A program made the position numbers and the translations under genes. From the UHGV virus genome UHGV-0134758: a stretch of DNA of 29,961 bases. The stretch is one strand, 5' to 3'. Below, piece by piece: positions 8,760-27,004 of this stretch. This DNA comes from a virus. The notes beneath the pieces were generated by a model. It did not search any database. It worked only from the letters and a program-made list of their open reading frames with translations, and was not told where the DNA came from. The first letter of the stretch is position 1, and every line of letters starts with the position of its first letter.

Positions 8760-8764
8760 ACAAA

Positions 8765-8788
8765 CCCCGCCGATTGGCGGGGTTTGTT
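8765..8788 (+). terminator. rho-independent terminator
   Basis: ccccgcc-gatt-ggcgggg stem-loop followed by tttgtt, 6 nt after the stop at 8759. Confidence 0.7.
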
Positions 8789-9218: not shown

Positions 9219-10331
9219 ATGAAAAAAATTACAGTGGCACTTTCTACGGTTGCAGCATCTGTTCTGATGGCAATGTCTGCACAAGCGGCAGAAATCTATA
9301 ACAAAGACGGTAACAAACTGGATCTGTACGGCAAAGTTAATGCAGAGCATTACTTCTCTTCTTCAGCTAGTAATGACGGAGATAAAACTTATGCTCGTAT
9401 GGGTTTCAAAGGTGAAACTCAGATTAATGACCAGTTAACCGGTTTTGGTCAGTGGGAGTACGAATTTAAAGGTAACCGTACTGAAACTGAAGGTTCTGAT
9501 AAAGATAAAACTCGTCTTGCGTTTGCAGGACTTCGCTTTGGCGATTATGGTTCGCTCGACTATGGTCGCAACTACGGTGTAGCTTATGATGTTGGCGCTT
9601 GGACTGACGTTCTGCCTGAGTTTGGTGGAGATACCTGGACTCAGACTGATGTATTTATGACCCAGCGTGCTACTGGCGTGGCGACCTATCGTAACAATGA
9701 TTTCTTCGGCCTGGTTGATGGTCTGAACTTTGCTTTGCAGTATCAAGGTAAAAATGATAGTGCTTCAAAAGTGAACAACCCGAAAGGCCGCGAAGCAGTT
9801 GAATCTAATGGTGATGGTTTTGGCCTGTCAGCTACTTACGATTATGAAGGATTTGGCGTTGCTGCAACCTATGCAAAATCTGACCGTACTGATGGGCAGG
9901 TATCCTATGCTAAAAACAGTCATCTGAATGCCTCTGGTAAAACTGCTGAAGTATGGGCTACGGGCCTGAAATATGATGCAAACAACATTTATCTGGCTGC
10001 CACTTATTCTGAAACTCAGAATATGACAGTCTTCGGTGATGATCATATTGCAAACAAAGCGAAAAACTTTGAAGCTGTTGCTCAATACCAGTTCGACTTC
10101 GGCTTGCGTCCGTCCATTGCTTACCTGCACTCTCGCGGTGAAAATATTGGTGCGTTCGGTAATCAGGATCTGGTTGAATACATCGAGGTAGGCACGACCT
10201 ATTACTTCAACAAAAATATGTCCGCTTTCGTTGACTACAAGATCAACCTGATTGATGAAAGTGAATTTACCAAAGCATCTGAGGTTGCAACCGACAACAT
10301 CGTTGCTGTTGGTATGACCTACCAATTCTAA
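9219..10331 (+). CDS. general porin of the OmpC/OmpF/PhoE family (Lc/NmpC-like phage-borne porin)
   Basis: Signal peptide [23 protein letters not shown] then mature [17 protein letters not shown]; conserved blocks GFGQWEYEF and LQYQGKN; C-terminal ...VGMTYQF with terminal Phe. Strongly resembles prophage porins Lc/NmpC from memory. Confidence 0.9.
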
Positions 10332-10486
10332 TTTTGGTAGGTAAGAATATGCGGGAAGGGAGTGATGTCACTGCCCGCATATAGGTGGCACCCTCATGCC
10401 GCCTTTGAAGAGGCAATAAAATTGCCTCTTCTCAATTTAACTTCATGTTATTTATTACCCTTTTATTGATTTGAAACTCTATTGTT

Positions 10487-14843: not shown

Positions 14844-17800
14844 ATGAACAAGCTATCTATGGGGTTGTTTCGCTGTTCAAGTGTCAGCGAAATATTGAAA
14901 TACATTAGGGCAATAACATCTCATCGAGCGCCGATTAGATACGGCGTGGAAAAGGTGGAAGGCAAAAGCTATGACCGGCTGCGCCGGGAGGCGAATCAGA
15001 AGGCGATAGATTTGCTTAATTCGCTGGTGGACGGCGCGACACTGACAGATGAACAGCGCCAGATCCTGGCCGGGTACACTGGTGAAGGCGGCATTGGCGG
15101 GTCCGTCTCCGAATATTACACACCAAAGCCTATCGCTGAAGGCGTCTGGGAGATCATGAAGCTCTATGGCGCGGACGTAGGTAACACTCTGGAACCATCG
15201 GCGGGCACCGGCGTTTTTAATGAGACAAAACCGGTTGGTACGGTGATGACCGCGACTGAGATCAGCAGTGTTTCCGGTCGTATAAACCAGCTGTTACATC
15301 CGGAAGACAGCGTACAGATTTCCCCGTTCGAACAACTCGCTGTAAGCACGCCTAACGATTCATTCGACCATGTTGTGGGTAACGTTCCGTTCGGCGGTCG
15401 TGATAACACACGCAACATCGATAAGCCTTACGCAGAAGAAACGGATATGGGGTCTTACTTCATGCTCCGCATGCTGGACAAGATAAAGCCAGGCGGATTC
15501 ATGTGTGTGATTGTGCCGCCGTCCATTGTTTCAGGTTCAAACATGAAGCGGTTACGCCTGCGCCTATCACGGAAAGCTGAATTTCTTGGTGCCCACCGCT
15601 TGCCTACCGGTACTTTTGACGCAAACGGGACCAGTACGGTCGTTGACGTGGTGCTGATGCGCAAACATCCGGCGGAGATGGCTGAGAAAATCCCCCTGGT
15701 GGATGAAGGCACTCTTGAATCGGCAAATGTGCTTTGGCCAACGTTTATTTCTGGCAAGTGGTTTGAAAAGGACGGCCGCCGGTTTGTTCATGGCACCCAG
15801 GAGAAGGGATTCCAGGGGCGTATTGAGGTTCGTGCCGACGGGCAGATTGATAACCAGGCTCTTAAAGCGAAGCTGATTCATCGTTTCGAAAGTCGTATCG
15901 ACTGGTCTTTGCTCGATATGGCTGAACCGTCACCGACCGCAGACGTTGTTGGTGAAGGGGAAATACGCCTGATTAATGGCGTATGGCAAAAATATGCTGG
16001 TGGTCGCTGGATTGAATCTGATGCCGGGAAGGAGCTGAAGATTGATGTTGCCAGTTATGGCGCGGATAGCTGGGAGGCTCTTCAGCGTAACCTGACTACA
16101 ACAGAAGGCCGTCTCGGCATGACATTTACCCAGATGGCAAATGTCCGCGATAAGTACACCACATCAATCAGCGACGATATGGTGCAGCTGGTGGACTGGA
16201 TTAACAGCCAGCCTGAAAAATACCGTGAACGCTTGTATCGCGGGGCGATGATTGGCCGGATGTTAATTGAATATCAGGATATGAAGGCCGCCGGGCATAG
16301 TGCTGAACAAATCGAACAGCAGCGCCTTTCCCTGGTATCCCGTTTGCAGGCAGAGATTGACCGTTTTGGTAACCCCGGTCGCGGTCCGATAGCGAAATTA
16401 TCGGGGAGCGGTGCGCGCGCCTGGTTTGCTTTCCGTGGTGCAATTAAGCTGGATGGCACTATTTCTGACGAGCTGACAGGAAAGCTGGTTACGCATGATT
16501 CCAGCGCCAGTTATGACTCCACCAGCTATCAGGACACCCTGCGTTATCTCTACAGTGATCTCACTCGCGATCCAATCCAGCTCGATGATTTCCGCCTTGC
16601 GTTTACCGGCGAACTGCCAGCCAGTGATGACGAGTTGCTTAATTTATTGGCCAGCACCCCTGGCATTGCGGTTTCACCGTATGGCGGGATTGTTCCGTTT
16701 GCCCGCGCCACCAGCGGCGACATTAACGAGATAGTGGCTCCAAAACAGGAATTCCTCGCCACGCTCCCCGACGGTCCAGTAAAGAACAACGTCCTTAATC
16801 AGCTGGCAGCGATCGAAGAGAAGCGCATCAAGACGCCAGCAGAGAATATCCGGTTTAAGCTCAATAGCCGTTGGTTTGACCGTTCCGTCATCCTGGAGTT
16901 TTTGCAGGAAAACGGCTATCCGGATCTGCGCTATGTGCAGTCAGTGCAGCTGGAAGGCGACGAAATGGTTTCTGACACCTATCACGGTGGTGATGGTCTG
17001 TTCGTCGGACACCGATACGGTGTCGTCCAGCGCAAGGATAAAGAAACAGGCGAGATCCGCTACGAGTGGGACCGTAAATCAGGTGAAAACGCGACCGGGT
17101 TCCCGGCACAGCTGGAAAAGTATCTCAATGGTGCGCGTATCGGTGGCAAAGATAGCGCGACGGCGAACGGCTACCGCGAGCAGATGGCACTGCTTGAGGA
17201 CCAGTTCAATAAGTGGATCAAGACGCACGATCGCTACGATGAGCTGGTTGCCAAATACAACGATGTGTTCAATAGCAATATCCCGTATGAACACTCTGGC
17301 GATCCGCTTGGGTTGAAGGGATTAAGCGGTAAGCGCCAGCCATTTGATTACCAGAATAGCGAGGTGCGCCGACTGTCCGAAGATGGGCGCGGCATCCTGG
17401 GCTTCGGCACCGGGCTGGGTAAAACCACGACCGCGCTGGCGCTTGAGGCGTTCAACTATGAGAACGGTCGCTCCACCCGTACTGCGTATGTAGTGCCTAA
17501 ATCAGTGCTGGAAAACTGGTATTACGAAGCAAAAGAATTCCTGAGTGAAGAGGCATTCAGTAACTACCTGTTCGTCGGTCTTGATGTGCTGATGGATGGC
17601 GATCAGATTCGCCAGGTGCCGGTGCTCGATGAGAACGGTAAACCAGTTCTTGGTACTGATGGCACTCCAGTTATGCGCGATGCTCTTAAGCTGGCAGATG
17701 AAGCCACTATCACGGCGCGGATGAACGCGATCCCGCACTCAAATTACCGTGCAGTCGTGTTTACCAAAGAACAATACGCCCGCATTCCGCTACGTGATGA

Positions 17801-20800
17801 CACCGTAGATGAGCATGCACAGGATATGCTTTATGACTTCGTTGCCGCCGGGCGCGTAGCCAGCGCAATGGACTCCGACTCCCACCGCAAAGAGGCCGCG
17901 CGTCGCCGGGTATTATCGGAGTATTCAGATACCGGCACCGAAAAAGCAGAGAAGTATCCGTACTTTGAGGATATGGGCTTCGATAGTGTGATCGCCGACG
18001 AAGGTCACAACTACCGCAATAGCTATAAAAATGGTCGCGAAGCGTCACAACTGGCCTATCTGCCCACCAGCGCGGTGGCGCAATCGGCGCGAGATATGGC
18101 AATCAAAAACGCGTACCTGATGAAAAAGAATGGCGGGCGCGGACCGGTTCTCCTGACTGCAACGCCAGTCGTTAACACCCCGATCGATGCATACAACATG
18201 CTTTCTCATGTTCTGCCGAAGGAATACTGGCAGAAGATGGGGATCTACGGTCCTGATGACTTCGTTAAATTCTTCGGCAAGACCAGGCTGGAAACGGTAC
18301 AGAAAATCAGCGGTGAAGTTGAAGAAAAAATGGCGCTGGTGGGTTTTGAAAACCTTGATGCGCTGCGCGGCATATTCCATCGCTGGACAACGCTTAAAAC
18401 GGCGGAAGACGTTAAGGATACCGTGGAGATCCCGGAGCTGGACGAACACCAGCAGGATGCACCACTTACTGAAGAACAACTGGCGGCGTATGAAGAATTG
18501 CGTCAGCAGGCAGAAGCGGCAGCCAAAGCCAACAATGGCGTAACGACCTCGGTCAATGAAGACGGCGTGATTGAGCACGAGAAAGCCCGTCCGATCTTCT
18601 TAATAATCAGGGATATGGACCGCGTATGTACTGACATGGACCTGTACTATCGCCGGATCACCTATCGTTTCCTGCCGGAGTACGCCGATGCGGTGCAGCA
18701 GCTGGCGGACAGTTTGCCTAAACAAGCCACCAGCGAAGACGACGACAGTGATGATTCTATCACGCAGCAATCGCAATACTCCCTGATAGATAAGGGCGAG
18801 TTTATTCAGTTGCAGGTTCCGGAAGCGTTCGAGCAGGAAGTGAATAAGCGCCTGGCCAGGTTTGGCATTGACGAACAGACCGTTACTCACCCCGTTACGC
18901 CCAAATACGCGAAGCTGATCGCCACGCTGAAGGAGTTTTTCCCGGAAGGTAAGCAAATCATCTTCACCGATGAAAAAACGCAGCACCAGAAGCTCAAGCG
19001 CATTATCTGCAATGCTCTTAACCTTGAACCTTCAAAGGTGGGGATCCTGAATGCTCAGACGGTTGCCGAGGCAGGCAAAACCGGTAAGAAACTGAAAGCG
19101 GTTAAACCGCCGAAAGAGTTACCGGATGAACCAACAGATGCACAGATAGCGAAATACAACGAGCAAATGGCTCTGTATGACGCCTATATCGCGCAGCAAA
19201 ATGAAATGTCGTTGGGCGGTCTGGAAAAGATTGCAGCAGACTTCCAGGAGGGCCGGACTCCGATCATCATCTGCAACAAAAAGGCAGAGGTGGGTATCAA
19301 CCTGCATCGAGGAACGACTGACATCCATCATCTGACGTTGCCGTGGACTCCAGCCAGTATCGCACAACGTAACGGTCGCGGTGCCCGAGTTGGCTCCAAC
19401 CGTGCAAGCGTTCGCGTTCACTACTACTGCGGCAAGGGTTCTTTCGATGAATACCGACTGAAGACGCTGAAGCGTAAAGCAGGCTGGATCTCCGATATCC
19501 TCCGTTCAGATAAGTCAGAAATGGAGAACGCCGACGCCAACGATATGGTCGAAATGCAGATGTATACCGCGAAGGATGACGGCGAACGTCTGGCAATGAT
19601 GCAGGTTCAAATGGATAAGGCGAAAGCCGCGCAACGCGCTCGCCAGAAAGAACAGGCTACTATCGACCTTCAGAACTACATCAAGGCGCAGCACGCAGCT
19701 GGCGAGGATGTGGAGGTACTTACCGCTGAATTAGAGCGAAGCAAAGCGGAACTTGAAAAGACCACCGCCGAGGTAGCTAAATTCAAACAGGCGGTAATGG
19801 CCAAAGCAGCTGATAACGCAGACTGGAAGGCCCGCTGGGGGAGTGTCCATCACACAGACCGTATGTTGTTAGCACAGTATCGCGCGTCGTTGAAAAGCGC
19901 CATTCAGCGCAAGGCTAATATCTCTCAAGCCATCTCCCGCTATGAGAAATTATTGAACCGTACTCAGAAGGCCGCGACGGATATCAAACGCCTGCGCCCG
20001 CTGGTGGAGGATGCAATAAATAAAGGCATTCTGGATGTTGATCCTGACCTGGTTAACCATGCGAGTGAGTTCCTTGTTATCGGCGATCGCTCATGGCGTG
20101 TAGGCCAATACTACGATTGTGCCGGTGATATCGTTCGCATTAAGTCGCTGGACTTCGACAGCCAGCGCGCAGACGTGGAGATCATCTTTACCTTAAAAGG
20201 CACCAAATCGGGTAACTGGGATGTGAAGACGCTGGATAAACAGGTTGATGTAACTCCCGATGAAGATGCTGTTATGCAGAAAATCAGTGGTGGCGTCTCC
20301 ATCGCCGGGATTAACGACATCATTTCCTGTGACGATTTCTACCGTTTCCAGCAGCGCGGCATGATCAAAATCACTGACTCATACGGCGTTCAGACTACAG
20401 AGTCAGGCTATAGCATTGATTTTGTTGGTACCTATACGGACCCGCTGAAGCATGCGGTTTACCCGGATCGCCGTGACGGCGCGCTGAAGTCGTCAATTGC
20501 AAAATGGGTGCTTGGTATGATGTTGGAAGGGAATAACCGCCAGATCCGTTCGGCAGAAACATTCCTGGTTGAACTGTTTGGCTCCAATTATGGCGATGTA
20601 ATCGCGTCATACGGAGATACGCTATCCCCTGAAGCAATTCAGGAGAAAATAGCGGATGCGATCGCCAGAATGCCGGAAAAAACAAGCCAGGGGGCTACTC
20701 GTAACGGGGATTCTGAACTTGAAGTCACCAATGCCATTTTTGGTACCAATGAGTTCCGGGCGTCAGATTATGAGATCACCACAGCACAGTTTGGCACCAT

Positions 20801-21611
20801 TGGCATTTACAGTAATAAAGACGAGATCAAGCAGGCAATGGACGCAGCAAGTGCGCGCATTGCAGCAGAACGGAAAGCCAATCTGAATCATGCAGTCGCC
20901 GCGCTGACTCAATCGTGGGTAACAGCAATCAGGGAGGCCGCCACCACAGGAAAAATCACACCGGCAATTGCGGATGTCGTAAACGACGGCTCTAAATTTA
21001 TGGATGCCTATAAAATGGATGCGGTGCAGTTGCCATCAGCCTATGGCCAACTCAGCTATCGCATGACCTACAACCTGGTATCAATGTTTACTGACCTTGC
21101 CATCCTTGGGCTGGTGGACCTTAACGAGGTTACGCCGGAATTACTCAGCATGCGCAAGAATCATGTGGAGATATTGCACAGAATTAACACGGTACTTGCC
21201 GGGCGCATCGATGAAGAGAAACAGGCAGACGCTGATCGGATAAACCTGGCCCTTGGCAACATCACGGAGGAAGAAATTGCCGCCAGAAACGAGAAACAAG
21301 AAGAGTTATCATCAATACAGGGTGATGCCACCAGCATAGCTCAGTCTCTTGGTCTGAATTATCGCGTATCCACTGCCGACCTGAAGATGATGTACGCACC
21401 AAAATTCGCCGCTGGCGAGGTATTTGGGCTTCAGGAGGCGTCCGGCATGAAAGGCATTCTTTTCCGTGCGAAAGACGCAATCAAGGCGAAATTCGGCGCT
21501 CGCTGGCTGCCAGCGAAGGCAAAGAACAGCGATTTTCCGGGTAACTGGTGGATTATCGAGACAAAACACAACGTGGCGGACGTTCTGGCCGTCATCCAAC
21601 AATACGCATAA
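14844..21611 (+). CDS. darB: DarB-like antirestriction protein: N-terminal N6-adenine methyltransferase domain fused to a superfamily-2 helicase
   Basis: 2255 aa. SAM motif LEPSAGTGVF (nt 15189..15218) and catalytic-type GNVPFGG (nt 15378..15398). Walker A GFGTGLGKTT (approx. residue 850), DEGH (approx. residue 1050) and helicase motif VI QRNGRGARVGS (approx. residue 1510). Length matches P1 DarB from memory. Confidence 0.9.
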   Translation: MNKLSMGLFRCSSVSEILKYIRAITSHRAPIRYGVEKVEGKSYDRLRREANQKAIDLLNSLVDGATLTDEQRQILAGYTGEGGIGGSVSEYYTPKPIAEGVWEIMKLYGADVGNTLEPSAGTGVFNETKPVGTVMTATEISSVSGRINQLLHPEDSVQISPFEQLAVSTPNDSFDHVVGNVPFGGRDNTRNIDKPYAEETDMGSYFMLRMLDKIKPGGFMCVIVPPSIVSGSNMKRLRLRLSRKAEFLGAHRLPTGTFDANGTSTVVDVVLMRKHPAEMAEKIPLVDEGTLESANVLWPTFISGKWFEKDGRRFVHGTQEKGFQGRIEVRADGQIDNQALKAKLIHRFESRIDWSLLDMAEPSPTADVVGEGEIRLINGVWQKYAGGRWIESDAGKELKIDVASYGADSWEALQRNLTTTEGRLGMTFTQMANVRDKYTTSISDDMVQLVDWINSQPEKYRERLYRGAMIGRMLIEYQDMKAAGHSAEQIEQQRLSLVSRLQAEIDRFGNPGRGPIAKLSGSGARAWFAFRGAIKLDGTISDELTGKLVTHDSSASYDSTSYQDTLRYLYSDLTRDPIQLDDFRLAFTGELPASDDELLNLLASTPGIAVSPYGGIVPFARATSGDINEIVAPKQEFLATLPDGPVKNNVLNQLAAIEEKRIKTPAENIRFKLNSRWFDRSVILEFLQENGYPDLRYVQSVQLEGDEMVSDTYHGGDGLFVGHRYGVVQRKDKETGEIRYEWDRKSGENATGFPAQLEKYLNGARIGGKDSATANGYREQMALLEDQFNKWIKTHDRYDELVAKYNDVFNSNIPYEHSGDPLGLKGLSGKRQPFDYQNSEVRRLSEDGRGILGFGTGLGKTTTALALEAFNYENGRSTRTAYVVPKSVLENWYYEAKEFLSEEAFSNYLFVGLDVLMDGDQIRQVPVLDENGKPVLGTDGTPVMRDALKLADEATITARMNAIPHSNYRAVVFTKEQYARIPLRDDTVDEHAQDMLYDFVAAGRVASAMDSDSHRKEAARRRVLSEYSDTGTEKAEKYPYFEDMGFDSVIADEGHNYRNSYKNGREASQLAYLPTSAVAQSARDMAIKNAYLMKKNGGRGPVLLTATPVVNTPIDAYNMLSHVLPKEYWQKMGIYGPDDFVKFFGKTRLETVQKISGEVEEKMALVGFENLDALRGIFHRWTTLKTAEDVKDTVEIPELDEHQQDAPLTEEQLAAYEELRQQAEAAAKANNGVTTSVNEDGVIEHEKARPIFLIIRDMDRVCTDMDLYYRRITYRFLPEYADAVQQLADSLPKQATSEDDDSDDSITQQSQYSLIDKGEFIQLQVPEAFEQEVNKRLARFGIDEQTVTHPVTPKYAKLIATLKEFFPEGKQIIFTDEKTQHQKLKRIICNALNLEPSKVGILNAQTVAEAGKTGKKLKAVKPPKELPDEPTDAQIAKYNEQMALYDAYIAQQNEMSLGGLEKIAADFQEGRTPIIICNKKAEVGINLHRGTTDIHHLTLPWTPASIAQRNGRGARVGSNRASVRVHYYCGKGSFDEYRLKTLKRKAGWISDILRSDKSEMENADANDMVEMQMYTAKDDGERLAMMQVQMDKAKAAQRARQKEQATIDLQNYIKAQHAAGEDVEVLTAELERSKAELEKTTAEVAKFKQAVMAKAADNADWKARWGSVHHTDRMLLAQYRASLKSAIQRKANISQAISRYEKLLNRTQKAATDIKRLRPLVEDAINKGILDVDPDLVNHASEFLVIGDRSWRVGQYYDCAGDIVRIKSLDFDSQRADVEIIFTLKGTKSGNWDVKTLDKQVDVTPDEDAVMQKISGGVSIAGINDIISCDDFYRFQQRGMIKITDSYGVQTTESGYSIDFVGTYTDPLKHAVYPDRRDGALKSSIAKWVLGMMLEGNNRQIRSAETFLVELFGSNYGDVIASYGDTLSPEAIQEKIADAIARMPEKTSQGATRNGDSELEVTNAIFGTNEFRASDYEITTAQFGTIGIYSNKDEIKQAMDAASARIAAERKANLNHAVAALTQSWVTAIREAATTGKITPAIADVVNDGSKFMDAYKMDAVQLPSAYGQLSYRMTYNLVSMFTDLAILGLVDLNEVTPELLSMRKNHVEILHRINTVLAGRIDEEKQADADRINLALGNITEEEIAARNEKQEELSSIQGDATSIAQSLGLNYRVSTADLKMMYAPKFAAGEVFGLQEASGMKGILFRAKDAIKAKFGARWLPAKAKNSDFPGNWWIIETKHNVADVLAVIQQYA

Positions 21612-21644: not shown

Positions 21645-22085
21645 ATGGCCACACTATCTGATACAATAAAACCGAATAAAACATATCTTGAGGCGGTACT
21701 CCGTACAGCGTTGTTAGGAAAGACAGAAGACGAATACGTTGATTTCTTCCTATCAGGGCTACGCGGGCGATTACTGAAAAACCCCCGCCTGTACCGCAGC
21801 TATGGCCCATACTGGCCGGAAATTAAAAAATTATTACTGGAGCGCGGTTATGGTAATTTCGGTCGTCTCGTTGACCGTGACGTTCGCAAAATTTACCGTT
21901 ATGACCGCCCGGCGCTAACACTCATAGCCGCGACGCTCTACAGCCAGGAGCGTTTTGATAATGGTCAGATATACTCAGCCTGGCATTTACTGCCAGTGCC
22001 TGAAGAAGTTGACGACCAGGACTATGAGTTTGAGTCTTACGATTTGGAAGTTGAAGCCTTGGCACAGGCTGGAGAGAAAACTTGA
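21645..22085 (+). CDS. hypothetical protein (position of P1 ulx)
   Basis: 146-aa ORF starting 34 nt after darB; preceded by a GC hairpin with a UUCG-type loop. Confidence 0.5.
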   Translation: MATLSDTIKPNKTYLEAVLRTALLGKTEDEYVDFFLSGLRGRLLKNPRLYRSYGPYWPEIKKLLLERGYGNFGRLVDRDVRKIYRYDRPALTLIAATLYSQERFDNGQIYSAWHLLPVPEEVDDQDYEFESYDLEVEALAQAGEKT

Positions 22086-22330
22086 AAAAGCGATACTACA
22101 CAGTAAAGCATGGGACGCTACGGGCATTACAAGAGTTTGCTGACAAGCATAACGTTGAGGTGCGCAGGGAAGGGGGAAGTAAAGCTCTGCGCATGTACCG
22201 TCCGGACGGGAAATGGCGTACGGTCGTCGATTTCAAAACTAACAGTGTTCCCCAAGGTGTCCGCGATCGGGCATTCGAAGAATGGGAGCAGATCATCATA
22301 GATAACGCATTGCTTCTGAATGCTGATTAA
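22082..22330 (+). CDS. small protein (position of P1 lxc)
   Basis: 82 aa, TTG start overlapping the previous stop (TTGA), GGAGAG 5 nt upstream. Confidence 0.45.
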   Translation: MKKRYYTVKHGTLRALQEFADKHNVEVRREGGSKALRMYRPDGKWRTVVDFKTNSVPQGVRDRAFEEWEQIIIDNALLLNAD

Positions 22331-22382
22331 TAATCATTTAAAGCCCATATGATATGGGCTTAAACAACAGGATCGATATACA

Positions 22383-23423
22383 GTGTTAGTTAAATATATA
22401 GGCGAGAGTTATATGGATAAACCTTGGCCGGGCATGCACATTAGAACATCTTGTCTGGAGGATGGTTTCTTTAGAGCAACGCAACCAAAGTATCTTAATG
22501 ATCCGTCGAGTGAGTCGCGACTTCTTCCATTTTTTAATAAATTTTCACCAGCCGATTACGCATGGGCTAGAAATGAATTTAAGAAAATGCAACGAGATCC
22601 ATCTTATGTCCCATCTATACAAGAGTTAGAGTATTATTTAAAACCTTGCGGGAAACGATACGGAGAGGATTTTCCACACTTGTTAATCAATGAAGGTTTT
22701 ACCTCAATGGATTCATATGATGAATCTAAACTCCAAGAAATAGTAACGTACCTTAACGATTATTTAGTAGAAGCCGTAAGCTGTCATCTTGGTGTGTTCT
22801 CTCTATCAAAAAGTGATTGCAATCTACACATGTGGACTCATTATGCATCGATAGGAAAGGGGTTTGCTGTAGTTTTCGATGAAACACACGATTTTTTCAA
22901 AATATATCGGCCGTGTGATGTTAGTTATAATCCAGAAGATAGAGCATCTGTAACCTATTATAAAGGCGCTGTGCGATTTAATGGCTATCCTGCGCCATCG
23001 AGGAATATAGATATAAAGAATAAAGATAATACATTGCATGGGATCTTAAATCGAGATTCAGTTCGCGAGCTTTTTATTAATAGGCTTCTTTATACAAAAG
23101 GTGAAGAGTGGCTTCCTGAAAATGAAAGTAGAATTATTTTTCCATTGGCTGATTGCGAGAGAAAAATAGGAAGTATTGTCTCTCCATCGATTGATGACTG
23201 CCTATTAAATGAGTATCCTGATGTTTTTCATGACTATCATGAAATTAACTTAAAGAAAATTCCTTTTTCTGCATTCAAGCAAATTACCTTAGGGTATAAC
23301 ATGACTGAAAAAGATAAAAATATAATTTTAGATAAAGTTAGTTCGAATAAAGAATTGTCTCACGTCAACGTATTACATTCAAAACTTGATATATACGGAA
23401 AGGTTGTGGTTAAGCCCATGTAA
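22383..23423 (+). CDS. DUF2971-like protein of unknown function; candidate single-gene anti-phage defence / abortive-infection cargo
   Basis: Markedly AT-rich 346-codon ORF (alternative ATG at 22413). Motifs FRATQPKYLNDPSSE and CNLHMWTHYASIGKGFAVVFD resemble the two DUF2971 signature blocks as I recall them. Isolated between the lxc-position ORF and the convergent mat-position ORF. Confidence 0.7.
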   Translation: MLVKYIGESYMDKPWPGMHIRTSCLEDGFFRATQPKYLNDPSSESRLLPFFNKFSPADYAWARNEFKKMQRDPSYVPSIQELEYYLKPCGKRYGEDFPHLLINEGFTSMDSYDESKLQEIVTYLNDYLVEAVSCHLGVFSLSKSDCNLHMWTHYASIGKGFAVVFDETHDFFKIYRPCDVSYNPEDRASVTYYKGAVRFNGYPAPSRNIDIKNKDNTLHGILNRDSVRELFINRLLYTKGEEWLPENESRIIFPLADCERKIGSIVSPSIDDCLLNEYPDVFHDYHEINLKKIPFSAFKQITLGYNMTEKDKNIILDKVSSNKELSHVNVLHSKLDIYGKVVVKPM

Positions 23424-23455
23424 TAATACGCTTATGTCTACACTTCATGATAAAT

Positions 23456-23477
23456 ACCTTCCTTAACTTAGGAAGGT
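23456..23477. terminator. hairpin (accttcc-ttaactta-ggaaggt) between convergent genes
   Basis: Lies between the stop of the 346-aa ORF (23423) and the stop of the minus-strand ORF (23521); the following sequence is T-rich. Confidence 0.4.
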
Positions 23478-23520
23478 TAGTTGTAGGTTTACGCAGAAAG
23501 TAACAAATAACCTTCGTAGG

Positions 23521-24162
23521 TTATAGAATATTATTCTTTCCGGTGAGTATTCCTTGAGGAACTCTAGCGCATCCCATAATTTGAGTTTTCTTGATGATGT
23601 TTATATATGACGCTATCAGCGATGAGTCATCACGACTATCCACTTCACAAGCCATTGCCCTGATGTAGTCGGCGCTGGCAACGTTGTTGTATTCCGTCGC
23701 AAAGCAACAGAGTAACGTCAGAACATGCTCTGTCGTTATTTCGCTCCAGTTGATGTTGAAAAATTCATCGCCTTTTTTATCGTGTTCGGAATCGAAGATG
23801 CTTTGGTGGAGGATGTATTTGCCGGATTCCTTGCGCGGTAACTTGATTGCTTTCTGGCGTTCCAGCTCCTTATAAATCTGCATTGCCTCAATTAGTACCG
23901 GCCTGCCGTTCATGAAGGGATCGCGCAACCTTACACGCTGGCCAACTCGACCAGTAATAAAGCTGTTTTCCTCTTCCACCAGCACGATAAAACCCTTTTC
24001 CTCTTTTTCTCGCAATTCGCGCAGCAGCTGGAGTTCCATGTCGCGGCGGCGTTCAGGGTAGCTGGTCCGCTCAGCCATTATCAGCTCGTTATTGATCCAT
24101 GCAGCAGTCATTGACGCCGGTTTGCCGACGCTCATCGAAACAACGCATATTTTCTTATCCAT
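23521..24162 (-). CDS. hypothetical protein (position of P1 mat, particle maturation)
   Basis: ATG at 24162 with AGGGG 5 nt upstream (the track's GTG start is at 24189). The late-promoter-like motif lies about 140 nt upstream. Confidence 0.5.
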   Translation of the reverse strand: MDKKICVVSMSVGKPASMTAAWINNELIMAERTSYPERRRDMELQLLRELREKEEKGFIVLVEEENSFITGRVGQRVRLRDPFMNGRPVLIEAMQIYKELERQKAIKLPRKESGKYILHQSIFDSEHDKKGDEFFNINWSEITTEHVLTLLCCFATEYNNVASADYIRAMACEVDSRDDSSLIASYINIIKKTQIMGCARVPQGILTGKNNIL

Positions 24163-25520: not shown

Positions 25521-26552
25521 CTAATCGCCATCTTCCAGCAGGCGCACCATTGCCCCTGTTTCACTATCCAGGTTACGGATATAGTTCATGACAATATTTA
25601 CATTGGTCCAGCCACCAGCTTGCATGATCTCCGGTATTGAAACTCCGGCGCGGGCCATATCTCGCGCGGCTCCGACACGGGCACTATGTCCAGACCAGGC
25701 CAGGTATCTCTGACCAGAGTCATCCTTAGCGCCGTAAATCAATCGATGAGTTGCTTCAAAAATCCCTTCCAGGGCGCGAGTTGATAGCTGGCTGGTGGAT
25801 GATGGCGAGGCAACACCATTTTTTCTGACCCGGCAAAACAAGTAGTTATTAGGATCATCAGCCACACCAGAGACGGAAATCCATCGGTCGACCAGTTTAG
25901 TTACCCCCAGGCTAAGTGCCTTCTCTACACCTGCGGTGCTAACCAGCGTTTTCGTTCTGCCAATATGGATTAACATTCTCCCACCGTCAGTACGTGAGAT
26001 ATCTTTAACCCTGATCCTGGCAATTTCGGCTATACGTAACAGGGTGTTATAAGCAATCCCCAGAAATGCCAGATTACGTACATCCTGGCAGCGATCGCTA
26101 TTTTCCATGAGTGAACGAACCTGGTCGAAATCAGTGCGTTCGAACGCTAGTGCCTGTTTTGCACGTTCACCGGCATCAACGTTTTCTTTTCGGATCCGCC
26201 GCATGACCAGTGAAACAGCATTGCTGTCACTTGGTCGTGGCAGCCCGGACCGACGATGAAGCATGTTTAGCTGGCCCAAATGTTGCTGGATAGTTTTTAC
26301 TGCCAGACCGCGCGCCTGAAGATATAGAAGATAATCGCGAACATCTTCAGGTTCTGCGGGAAACCATTTCCGGTTGTTCAACTTGCACCATGCCGCCCAT
26401 GACCGGCAAACGGACAGAAGCATTTTCCAGGTATGCTCAGAAAAAGCCTGGCGATCCCTGAACATATCCATCAGGTTCTTGCGAACCTCATCACTCGTTG
26501 CATCGACCGGCAATGCAGGCAAATTTTGGTGTACGGTCAGTAAATTGGACAT
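25521..26552 (-). CDS. cre: Cre tyrosine site-specific recombinase
   Basis: 343 aa, MSNLLTVHQNLPALPVDATSDEVRKNLMDMFRDRQAFSEHTWKMLLSVCRSWAAWCKLNNRKWFPAEPEDVRDYLLYLQARGLAVKTIQQHL...MVRLLEDGD. Essentially the P1 Cre sequence as I know it, with the cognate loxP about 420 bp upstream. Confidence 0.97.
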   Translation of the reverse strand: MSNLLTVHQNLPALPVDATSDEVRKNLMDMFRDRQAFSEHTWKMLLSVCRSWAAWCKLNNRKWFPAEPEDVRDYLLYLQARGLAVKTIQQHLGQLNMLHRRSGLPRPSDSNAVSLVMRRIRKENVDAGERAKQALAFERTDFDQVRSLMENSDRCQDVRNLAFLGIAYNTLLRIAEIARIRVKDISRTDGGRMLIHIGRTKTLVSTAGVEKALSLGVTKLVDRWISVSGVADDPNNYLFCRVRKNGVASPSSTSQLSTRALEGIFEATHRLIYGAKDDSGQRYLAWSGHSARVGAARDMARAGVSIPEIMQAGGWTNVNIVMNYIRNLDSETGAMVRLLEDGD

Positions 26553-26970: not shown

Positions 26971-27004
26971 ATAACTTCGTATAATGTATGCTATACGAAG
27001 TTAT
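26971..27004. other. loxP recombination site (13-bp inverted repeats around an 8-bp spacer)
   Basis: ATAACTTCGTATA-ATGTATGC-TATACGAAGTTAT read directly, canonical loxP. Hand-counted, plus or minus 1 nt. Confidence 0.95.

Follow-up and report, generated by a model that had tools for sequence, protein, structure and literature searches.

A perfect 21-bp palindrome behind lxc in a P1-type phage-plasmid, probably a leaky gene-end stem-loop of an exchangeable DUF2971 module

What a perfect palindrome does between the last conserved backbone gene of a phage and an AT-rich cargo gene is the question raised by the virus genome UHGV-0134758, a stretch of 29,961 nucleotides (hereafter the window) that belongs to a P1-type phage-plasmid. 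The lxc-mat interval is filled by the type III restriction-modification (R-M) genes mod and res in P1 and P7, whereas in the window it is filled by a single AT-rich open reading frame (ORF). Its GC content is 35% compared with 52% for darB-ulx-lxc, so that the palindrome does stand at the left edge of AT-rich cargo, as a first-pass annotation had described it. The same annotation had placed the 21-bp palindrome at 22341-22361, and this is exact: it starts 11 nt past the lxc stop codon, which ends at 22330, and the cargo start codon (GTG, 22383) lies 22 nt past its end. On balance the palindrome is probably a leaky intercistronic (gene-end) RNA stem-loop in a transcript reading through from lxc into the cargo. 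The observations that carry this reading are the anatomy of the palindrome, its membership of an exchangeable module, its positional equivalence with unrelated hairpins in other phages, the absence of a U-tract and the absence of space for a promoter.

Transcribed from either strand, the palindrome forms a 9-bp stem with four G-C pairs and a UGA triloop (dG -11.1 kcal/mol), and centroid folds of both strands retain this stem as the sole structure. The 50 nt directly after lxc fold at -12.1 kcal/mol, compared with -5.0 +/- 2.3 kcal/mol for shuffled sequences (z = -3.0, with 1% of shuffles equal). Four perfect inverted repeats (arms ≥10 nt, spacer ≤8 nt) were counted in the window, and dinucleotide shuffles gave a mean of 0.23 and a maximum of 2, corresponding to about 17-fold enrichment. 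The remaining three are loxP and two gene-end hairpins at 8762-8785 and 10408-10430. A single such palindrome in 30 kb is on its own only moderately unlikely, and it is the position, together with the analogous hairpins in other elements, that identifies the palindrome as non-random. The gene-end reading gains support from the other two non-lox palindromes of the window, each of which also directly follows a gene end. These two flank a second AT-rich cargo, a porin gene of the NmpC/OmpD type (9219-10331), as in P7; P1 has IS1 at that site. The element had been thought too symmetric to be only a terminator, an argument contradicted by both of these gene-end hairpins, one of which scores as a bidirectional terminator, and by the perfect 12-1-12 palindrome found in the same position at the SJ46-type junction.

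Using a degenerate pattern for the end of lxc, 139 lxc 3′ junctions were collected from 88 viral-contig stretches, 43 metagenomic stretches and annotated phages. They fall into 17 junction types, the most common being the DUF2971 module of the window (n = 24), and the 43 metagenomic junctions brought no new type. Looking for the palindrome in other elements with the same cargo had been suggested as a check, and it was present in every one of these 24 junctions; the 14 exact matches in viral contigs were all accompanied by the DUF2971 cargo in P1-like contigs. Every type without mod-res has its own stable hairpin after the lxc stop, with dG ranging from -11 to -21 kcal/mol and no sequence in common. 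The scored hairpins start 0-19 nt past the stop codon, the core stem of the L015 type lying about 30 nt past it. The first 50 nt are significantly structured relative to shuffles in 11 of the 14 types without mod-res, and in neither of the two mod-res types, where the annotated mod promoters of P1 are found instead. At the empty site (RCS47 type) a lone hairpin lies between the convergent stop codons of lxc and mat, so that a hairpin after lxc is taken to be the ancestral state. The cargo is convergent with lxc in most modules, the hairpin there lying between two stop codons, and only three cargos are co-directional: mod-res, which has its own promoters and no hairpin, the DUF2971 gene, and a PIN-domain gene (JL22 type, PDC-S34). 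The JL22-type layout is stop codon, 8 nt, a 12-bp hairpin, 24 nt with a Shine-Dalgarno sequence (SD) and ATG. The DUF2971 and PIN modules, although mutually unrelated, thus follow one design of stop codon, 8-10 nt, hairpin, 21-24 nt with SD and start codon. Structure and position shared in this way without shared sequence are what would be expected of a gene-end element acting at the RNA level, and not of a sequence-specific protein site.

This comparison bears directly on the binding site for a dimeric regulator that had been proposed for the palindrome. A dimeric protein seated on it would control a weak promoter with its -10 hexamer at the dyad centre and a transcription start near 22360, just upstream of the SD. 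The dyad symmetry is a perfect 10-1-10, a -10-like hexamer matching in 5/6 positions occupies the centre on both strands (TATGAT and TATCAT), and the palindrome is immediately upstream of the cargo ribosome-binding site. However, a standard sigma-70 scan between lxc and the cargo detected no promoter, and a relaxed scan returned weak candidates only, none convincing; the best -35 for TATGAT was TTAATA with a 15-nt spacer. The palindrome is single-copy in the window and in a 97-kb complete genome with the module, even allowing 5 mismatches, and that genome contains one stray half-site, in darB. The cargo protein is the sole product of the module, its fold is predicted to be DarT/Tpt1-like, of the ADP-ribosyltransferase type, and a DNA-binding fold or helix-turn-helix sought in it gave no match. 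Nothing similar to the palindrome was found upstream of six cargo homologues in other mobile elements. Thirteen other junction types, moreover, have hairpin loops of 4-7 nt and unrelated sequences at the position of the palindrome, which points to RNA structure and not to a common binding site. An operator is accordingly regarded as quite unlikely, and the regulator site is not supported. An Aeromonas upstream sequence, AAGCATATGAAATATGGCGC, was considered as a loose look-alike and rejected: its symmetry is imperfect, its distance from the start codon is 62-82 nt as opposed to 22-42 nt, and nothing similar was found upstream of the five other homologues.

The scans bear equally on the possibility that the hairpin forms the extreme 5′ end of the cargo messenger and stabilises it. 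A promoter resembling P2mod would then extend across the lxc stop codon, with AATAAT at 22329-22334 as its -10 and an mRNA start at about 22341. P1 does have its annotated P2mod at this position, with the -35 inside lxc and the -10 over the stop codon, and the -10 of the window (5/6) predicts a start at the first base of the palindrome. Against it stand a -35 matching in only 2/6 positions at a 19-nt spacer, differences from P2mod in 6/29 positions, and the PIN-type module, which keeps its hairpin without any comparable -10 ahead of it. Such a stabiliser, which would protect from 5′-end-dependent decay in the manner of the ompA 5′ stem-loop, is judged very unlikely.

Termination was assessed with a discriminant of the d'Aubenton-Carafa type, which was used with modern energy parameters and gives approximate scores. 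On the + strand the palindrome scored d = -37 (nT 1.71, tail UUAAACAACAGGAUC (UUAAACAACA)), the stem being followed by UU and then AAACAACA, so that the reported absence of a T-run is correct for this strand. On the - strand, where UUU and then AAAUGAUUAUU follow the stem, the score was d = -19 (nT 2.71, tail UUUAAAUGAUUAUUA (UUUAAAUGAUUAUU)). The control palindrome at 8762-8785 scored +23/+24, as a bidirectional intrinsic terminator, and the best lxc-proximal hairpins of the convergent modules scored about 0 to +6. An automatic terminator scan of the window did not call the palindrome hairpin. A stable GC-containing stem-loop and a gene-end position are thus present and a U-rich tract is missing, and with scores below threshold the palindrome is not a canonical intrinsic terminator. 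Without a U-tract the hairpin should be passable to RNA polymerase.

The T-richer tail and better score of the - strand would suit an insulator against antisense transcription, in which the hairpin followed by UUUAAAUGAUUAUU blocks transcripts running from the AT-rich cargo into lxc, ulx and darB. Two good leftward sigma-70-like matches (10/12) are indeed found on the - strand inside the cargo, directed toward lxc, at 22787-22759 and 22987-22957. They are nevertheless mere consensus matches in AT-rich DNA, and the - strand score is still far under the threshold, making this explanation very improbable indeed. The broader proposal of a transcriptional insulator came close to the best-supported reading, a leaky gene-end stem-loop.

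Whether the palindrome belongs to the phage backbone or to the cargo was addressed by blastn against 17 other junction variants. In every comparison, with P1, P7, RCS47, SJ46, JL22 and further P1-like phages, backbone similarity ends with the lxc stop codon (22328-22334) and restarts at 23639, within mat. The palindrome is consequently the first element of a module of 1308 bp and, as judged from these alignments, a part of the DUF2971 defence module and not of the P1 backbone. The spacer between cargo and mat is 97 nt long, and together with the mat 3′ end it was seen only with the DUF2971 cargo. The Mat proteins of the window and of RCS47 share residues 1-171 without a difference, and identity then drops to about 50% over the final 42. 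Each cargo type has its own diverged allele of the final 20-40 codons of mat, and the left boundary is always exactly the lxc stop. A small 6-1-6 palindrome, TGATTAaTAATCA (22324-22336), spans this stop and the junction, its left arm belonging to the backbone and its right arm to the module. As a Fur box it matches about 11/19 positions by eye, which was judged too weak.

These boundaries decide on the recombination junction that had also been suggested, namely that the palindrome is used for insertion or exchange of the cargo. It is indeed only 10 nt away from where the variable region begins, and in one sequence (L053) an empty-site chimera was joined inside the 3′ arm (CCGGGCA) of the hairpin of another module. 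Yet all 17 junction types have their left boundary at the lxc stop codon (22330/22331 in the window) and not at the hairpin, and on the right the boundary is drawn out as a divergence gradient within mat, a pattern implying that homologous recombination in the flanking genes exchanges whole modules. The right end of the module contains neither a second copy nor a half-site, the module has no recombinase, and the 10-1-10 geometry and the sequence are unlike loxP. L053 shows that hairpins are occasional crossover points, but nothing ties the palindrome to such an event, and a role as recombination site is extremely unlikely. In L053 the first 35 nt after the lxc stop form a chimeric hairpin, the left arm and loop derived from a 673R5-type module (CAATTTTGCCCGGAATTACCGGGC) and the right flank from the RCS47-type empty site (ATCTTTCAGAG). 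The stem core GCCCGG...CCGGGC is common to seven junction types.

The module was found at ≥99% identity in about 90 plasmid records and 63 complete E. coli genomes, the carriers always being P1-like replicons or cointegrates of these. A chromosomal copy in E. coli NCTC9040 was considered as a new context and rejected, being a degraded P1 fragment truncated by IS5. A scan of genome contigs for cargo plus palindrome in other hosts returned E. coli only. A breakpoint at 23564-23567 inside the mat 3′ end recurs; in NCTC9040 (L099) an IS5 adjoins it, and several plasmids match the module only up to, or only from, this point (L087, NZ_CP079766.1 and NZ_CP010179.1). The coordinates of the features are collected in Table 1.

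Table 1. Positions of the palindrome, the cargo module and neighbouring features in the window.
Feature	Position	Strand	Remarks
Perfect palindrome AAGCCCATAT-G-ATATGGGCTT (full: AAGCCCATATGATATGGGCTT)	22341-22361	either	10-nt perfect arms, single central G
-10-like hexamer TATGAT, centre of palindrome	22348-22353	+	relaxed scan, 5/6 match; bears only on an operator or promoter
Shine-Dalgarno AGGA of the cargo gene	22369-22372	+	read from the sequence; 7 nt past the hairpin, 10 nt ahead of GTG
Cargo gene, 346-aa DUF2971 / PADLOC PDC-S31 candidate defence protein	22383-23423	+	Pfam and PADLOC matches
Swappable cargo module: hairpin, DUF2971 gene, spacer, module-specific mat 3′ end	22331-23638		1308 bp; blastn boundaries
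Right-hand gene-end hairpin of the module, ACCTTCCT-aagtta-AGGAAGGT	23456-23477		between convergent cargo and mat stops; terminator-like on - strand
Module-specific mat 3′ end (last 39 codons)	23521-23638	-	diverged from all other mat alleles
P2lxc, sigma-70 promoter annotated in P1 (NC_005856)	21831-21859	+	29/29 identical in the window; presumed active here
P1lxc, sigma-70 promoter annotated in P1 (NC_005856)	22009-22037	+	29/29 identical in the window; presumed active here
darB	14844-21611	+	
ulx	21645-22085	+	
lxc (bof), modulator of the C1 repressor, last conserved backbone gene	22082-22330	+	96-99% identity to lxc of P1, P7, RCS47 and SJ46
mat	23521-24162	-	
ref		-	
cre	25521-26552	-	
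loxP, adjoins cre	26974-27001		one of the four perfect inverted repeats of the window

Lacking room for a promoter of its own, the cargo most likely owes its transcription to polymerase reading through from the lxc promoters, which would be active in lysogens. Consistent with this, P1lxc and P2lxc are 100% conserved upstream, and only 21 nt, holding the SD, separate the hairpin from the GTG. In other mobile elements the cargo homologues are preceded by 100-350 nt of AT-rich sequence of their own; ahead of the P1 copy there are 52 nt, which suggests that this copy has become fused into the lxc transcription unit and is expressed by read-through. The hairpin would let the polymerase through, attenuating it at most, would provide the lxc-containing RNA with an end resistant to 3′ exonucleases, and would separate the lxc and cargo cistrons structurally. 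The expected net effect would be that lxc is stably expressed while the defence gene, potentially toxic and with a GTG start, is expressed constitutively at a low level.

The GTG at 22383 is the true start of the cargo, and not the ATG at 22413: six homologues with about 50% identity, found in Aeromonas, Klebsiella, Serratia, Salmonella, Citrobacter and a metagenome, share the start M-L-V-K and align from residue 1; one of the six likewise starts with GTG. Their SD sequences are GGAG or GGGGG, at a spacing comparable to that in the window. Public and RefSeq annotations (L099, L101, L111) vary between GTG 22383 (346 aa) and ATG 22413 (336 aa). The nearest protein relatives beyond copies of the module are ≤53% identical. 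Elsewhere, homologues were seen as lone genes at a tail-gene hotspot of a P2-like prophage, within integrase/AlpA islands and beside a gamma-mobile-trio. Antiphage activity in Lactococcus and an ADP-ribosyltransferase fold have been reported for Aristaios, a DUF2971 protein (PMC11381338). A literature search for PDC-S31 found no paper mentioning the name.

Several points weigh against the leaky stem-loop. At -11.1 kcal/mol the hairpin is the weakest of the junction set, and it fails the terminator score on both strands, so that it may hardly terminate at all and could be close to neutral. A hairpin is missing at this position in P1 and P7, which work all the same, and lxc function thus does not depend on one. 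For convergent modules it is enough to regard the hairpin as the cargo's own terminator, so that the case for selection behind lxc is carried mainly by the two co-directional modules and the empty site. Among eight haplotypes of the module (copies ≥98.9% identical) 25 of 1308 nt are variable and none of these lies in the palindrome; only about 0.4 substitutions would be expected in 21 nt, so the invariance of the stem is uninformative and provides no evidence of covariation. Immediately downstream of the hairpin the C/G ratio is 0.6, which is not rut-like; a processed end of a Rho-dependent terminator was rejected on this ground, and the leaky intercistronic hairpin favoured over it. Finally, co-transcription, attenuation and stabilisation are all inferred.

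The main rival is accordingly a near-neutral remnant. The hairpin would then be an old terminator, retained from wherever the module was put together (it could have belonged to an adjacent gene of a diverged P1-like donor, for example) and now of no significant effect. The weakness of this hairpin relative to the series, the missing U-tract and the uninformative stem all agree with it, as does the arrival of the module as one block with its own diverged mat 3′ end, from which it appears that the module was imported from a diverged P1-like relative and not built in place. A remnant is harder to reconcile with the compactness of the 52-nt intergenic space, 21 nt of which are taken by the hairpin, with the retention of the stop-hairpin-SD-start design in the unrelated co-directional PIN module, and with the hairpin kept after lxc at the empty site as well. 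It is considered unlikely.

The interval between lxc and mat in P1-like phage-plasmids is a compact, saturating hotspot, with about 13 cargo types in addition to empty sites, and most cargos are candidate defence genes. They include type III R-M, DUF2971 (PDC-S31), RelA/SpoT (PDC-S33) and PIN (PDC-S34), and it is because other cargos match PDC-S33 and PDC-S34 that the locus is said to behave as a defence hotspot. No paper describing it as such was found in a literature search. The site is already in use for insertions (PMC13172314). A more far-reaching interpretation, held to be rather unlikely, is that the hairpin behind lxc is a functional 'slot' of this hotspot that tunes read-through, its GC-rich stems also serving as occasional microhomology crossovers. 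If so, the hairpin without U-tract in the DUF2971 and PIN modules would set a low level of read-through from the lysogen-active lxc promoters, the expression of a toxic abortive-infection effector would be tied to the lysogenic state, and the shared GCCCGG...CCGGGC stems (seven junction types and the L053 chimera) might serve cargo exchange.

The palindrome itself is of minor importance, being one more gene-end stem-loop. Its context is of modest value, since whole modules are exchanged at lxc-mat, each with its own lxc-proximal hairpin and mat 3′ end. Should the hairpin tune read-through from lxc, it would offer a simple, testable case of a phage-plasmid keeping a potentially toxic defence gene at a low level of expression without a dedicated promoter, and it would be relevant to the engineering of payloads at the lxc-mat site.

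Compared with known systems, the palindrome resembles intrinsic terminators, including bidirectional ones between convergent genes, in its GC-containing stem-loop a few nucleotides past a stop codon and in the outer A/T pairs of its arms, which produce brief runs of A and U on either strand. It is also the positional equivalent of the lxc/mat hairpin in P1-like phages with an empty site, and it resembles the palindrome at 8762-8785. It differs from intrinsic terminators in that it lacks a + strand U-tract, has only UUU on the - strand, scores far below threshold and is followed after 21 nt by a co-directional ORF that needs transcription to continue. With the operators of dimeric repressors it shares a perfect 21-bp dyad close to a start codon, but not a cognate regulator, a credible promoter, a second site or conservation with the gene family; the C1 operators of P1 are asymmetric 17-mers. 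Like the loxP and cix sites of P1 it is an inverted repeat carried by a P1 genome close to where variable DNA begins, whereas its spacer is 1 nt as opposed to 8 nt (lox) or 2 nt (cix), its arms are dissimilar to those of loxP and it does not lie at the junction. REP hairpins, such as those in malE-malF, are protective intercistronic structures, but REP/BIME elements form a multi-copy family of palindromes, from which the palindrome differs in being single-copy. A comparison with Rfam gave no family at the gathering threshold anywhere in the window, and the hits around the palindrome were at chance level.

A further parallel is with the protective stem-loops of E. coli (Dar & Sorek 2018; PMC6061677, PMC5927463). 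Stable stem-loops lacking a U-tract protect E. coli transcripts from 3′-5′ exonucleases (PMC6061677), and relative mRNA levels within E. coli operons are shaped by protective RNA structures (PMC5927463). The latter lie mostly inside coding regions, unlike the palindrome, whose downstream sequence is not rut-like. It nonetheless has a stable stem, no U-run and a location on the 3′ side of the segment to be protected, and, like them, it stands at the border between two cistrons of a probably polycistronic RNA, where it would be expected to shield the upstream segment from PNPase and RNase II and so to leave the two genes with uneven amounts of mRNA.
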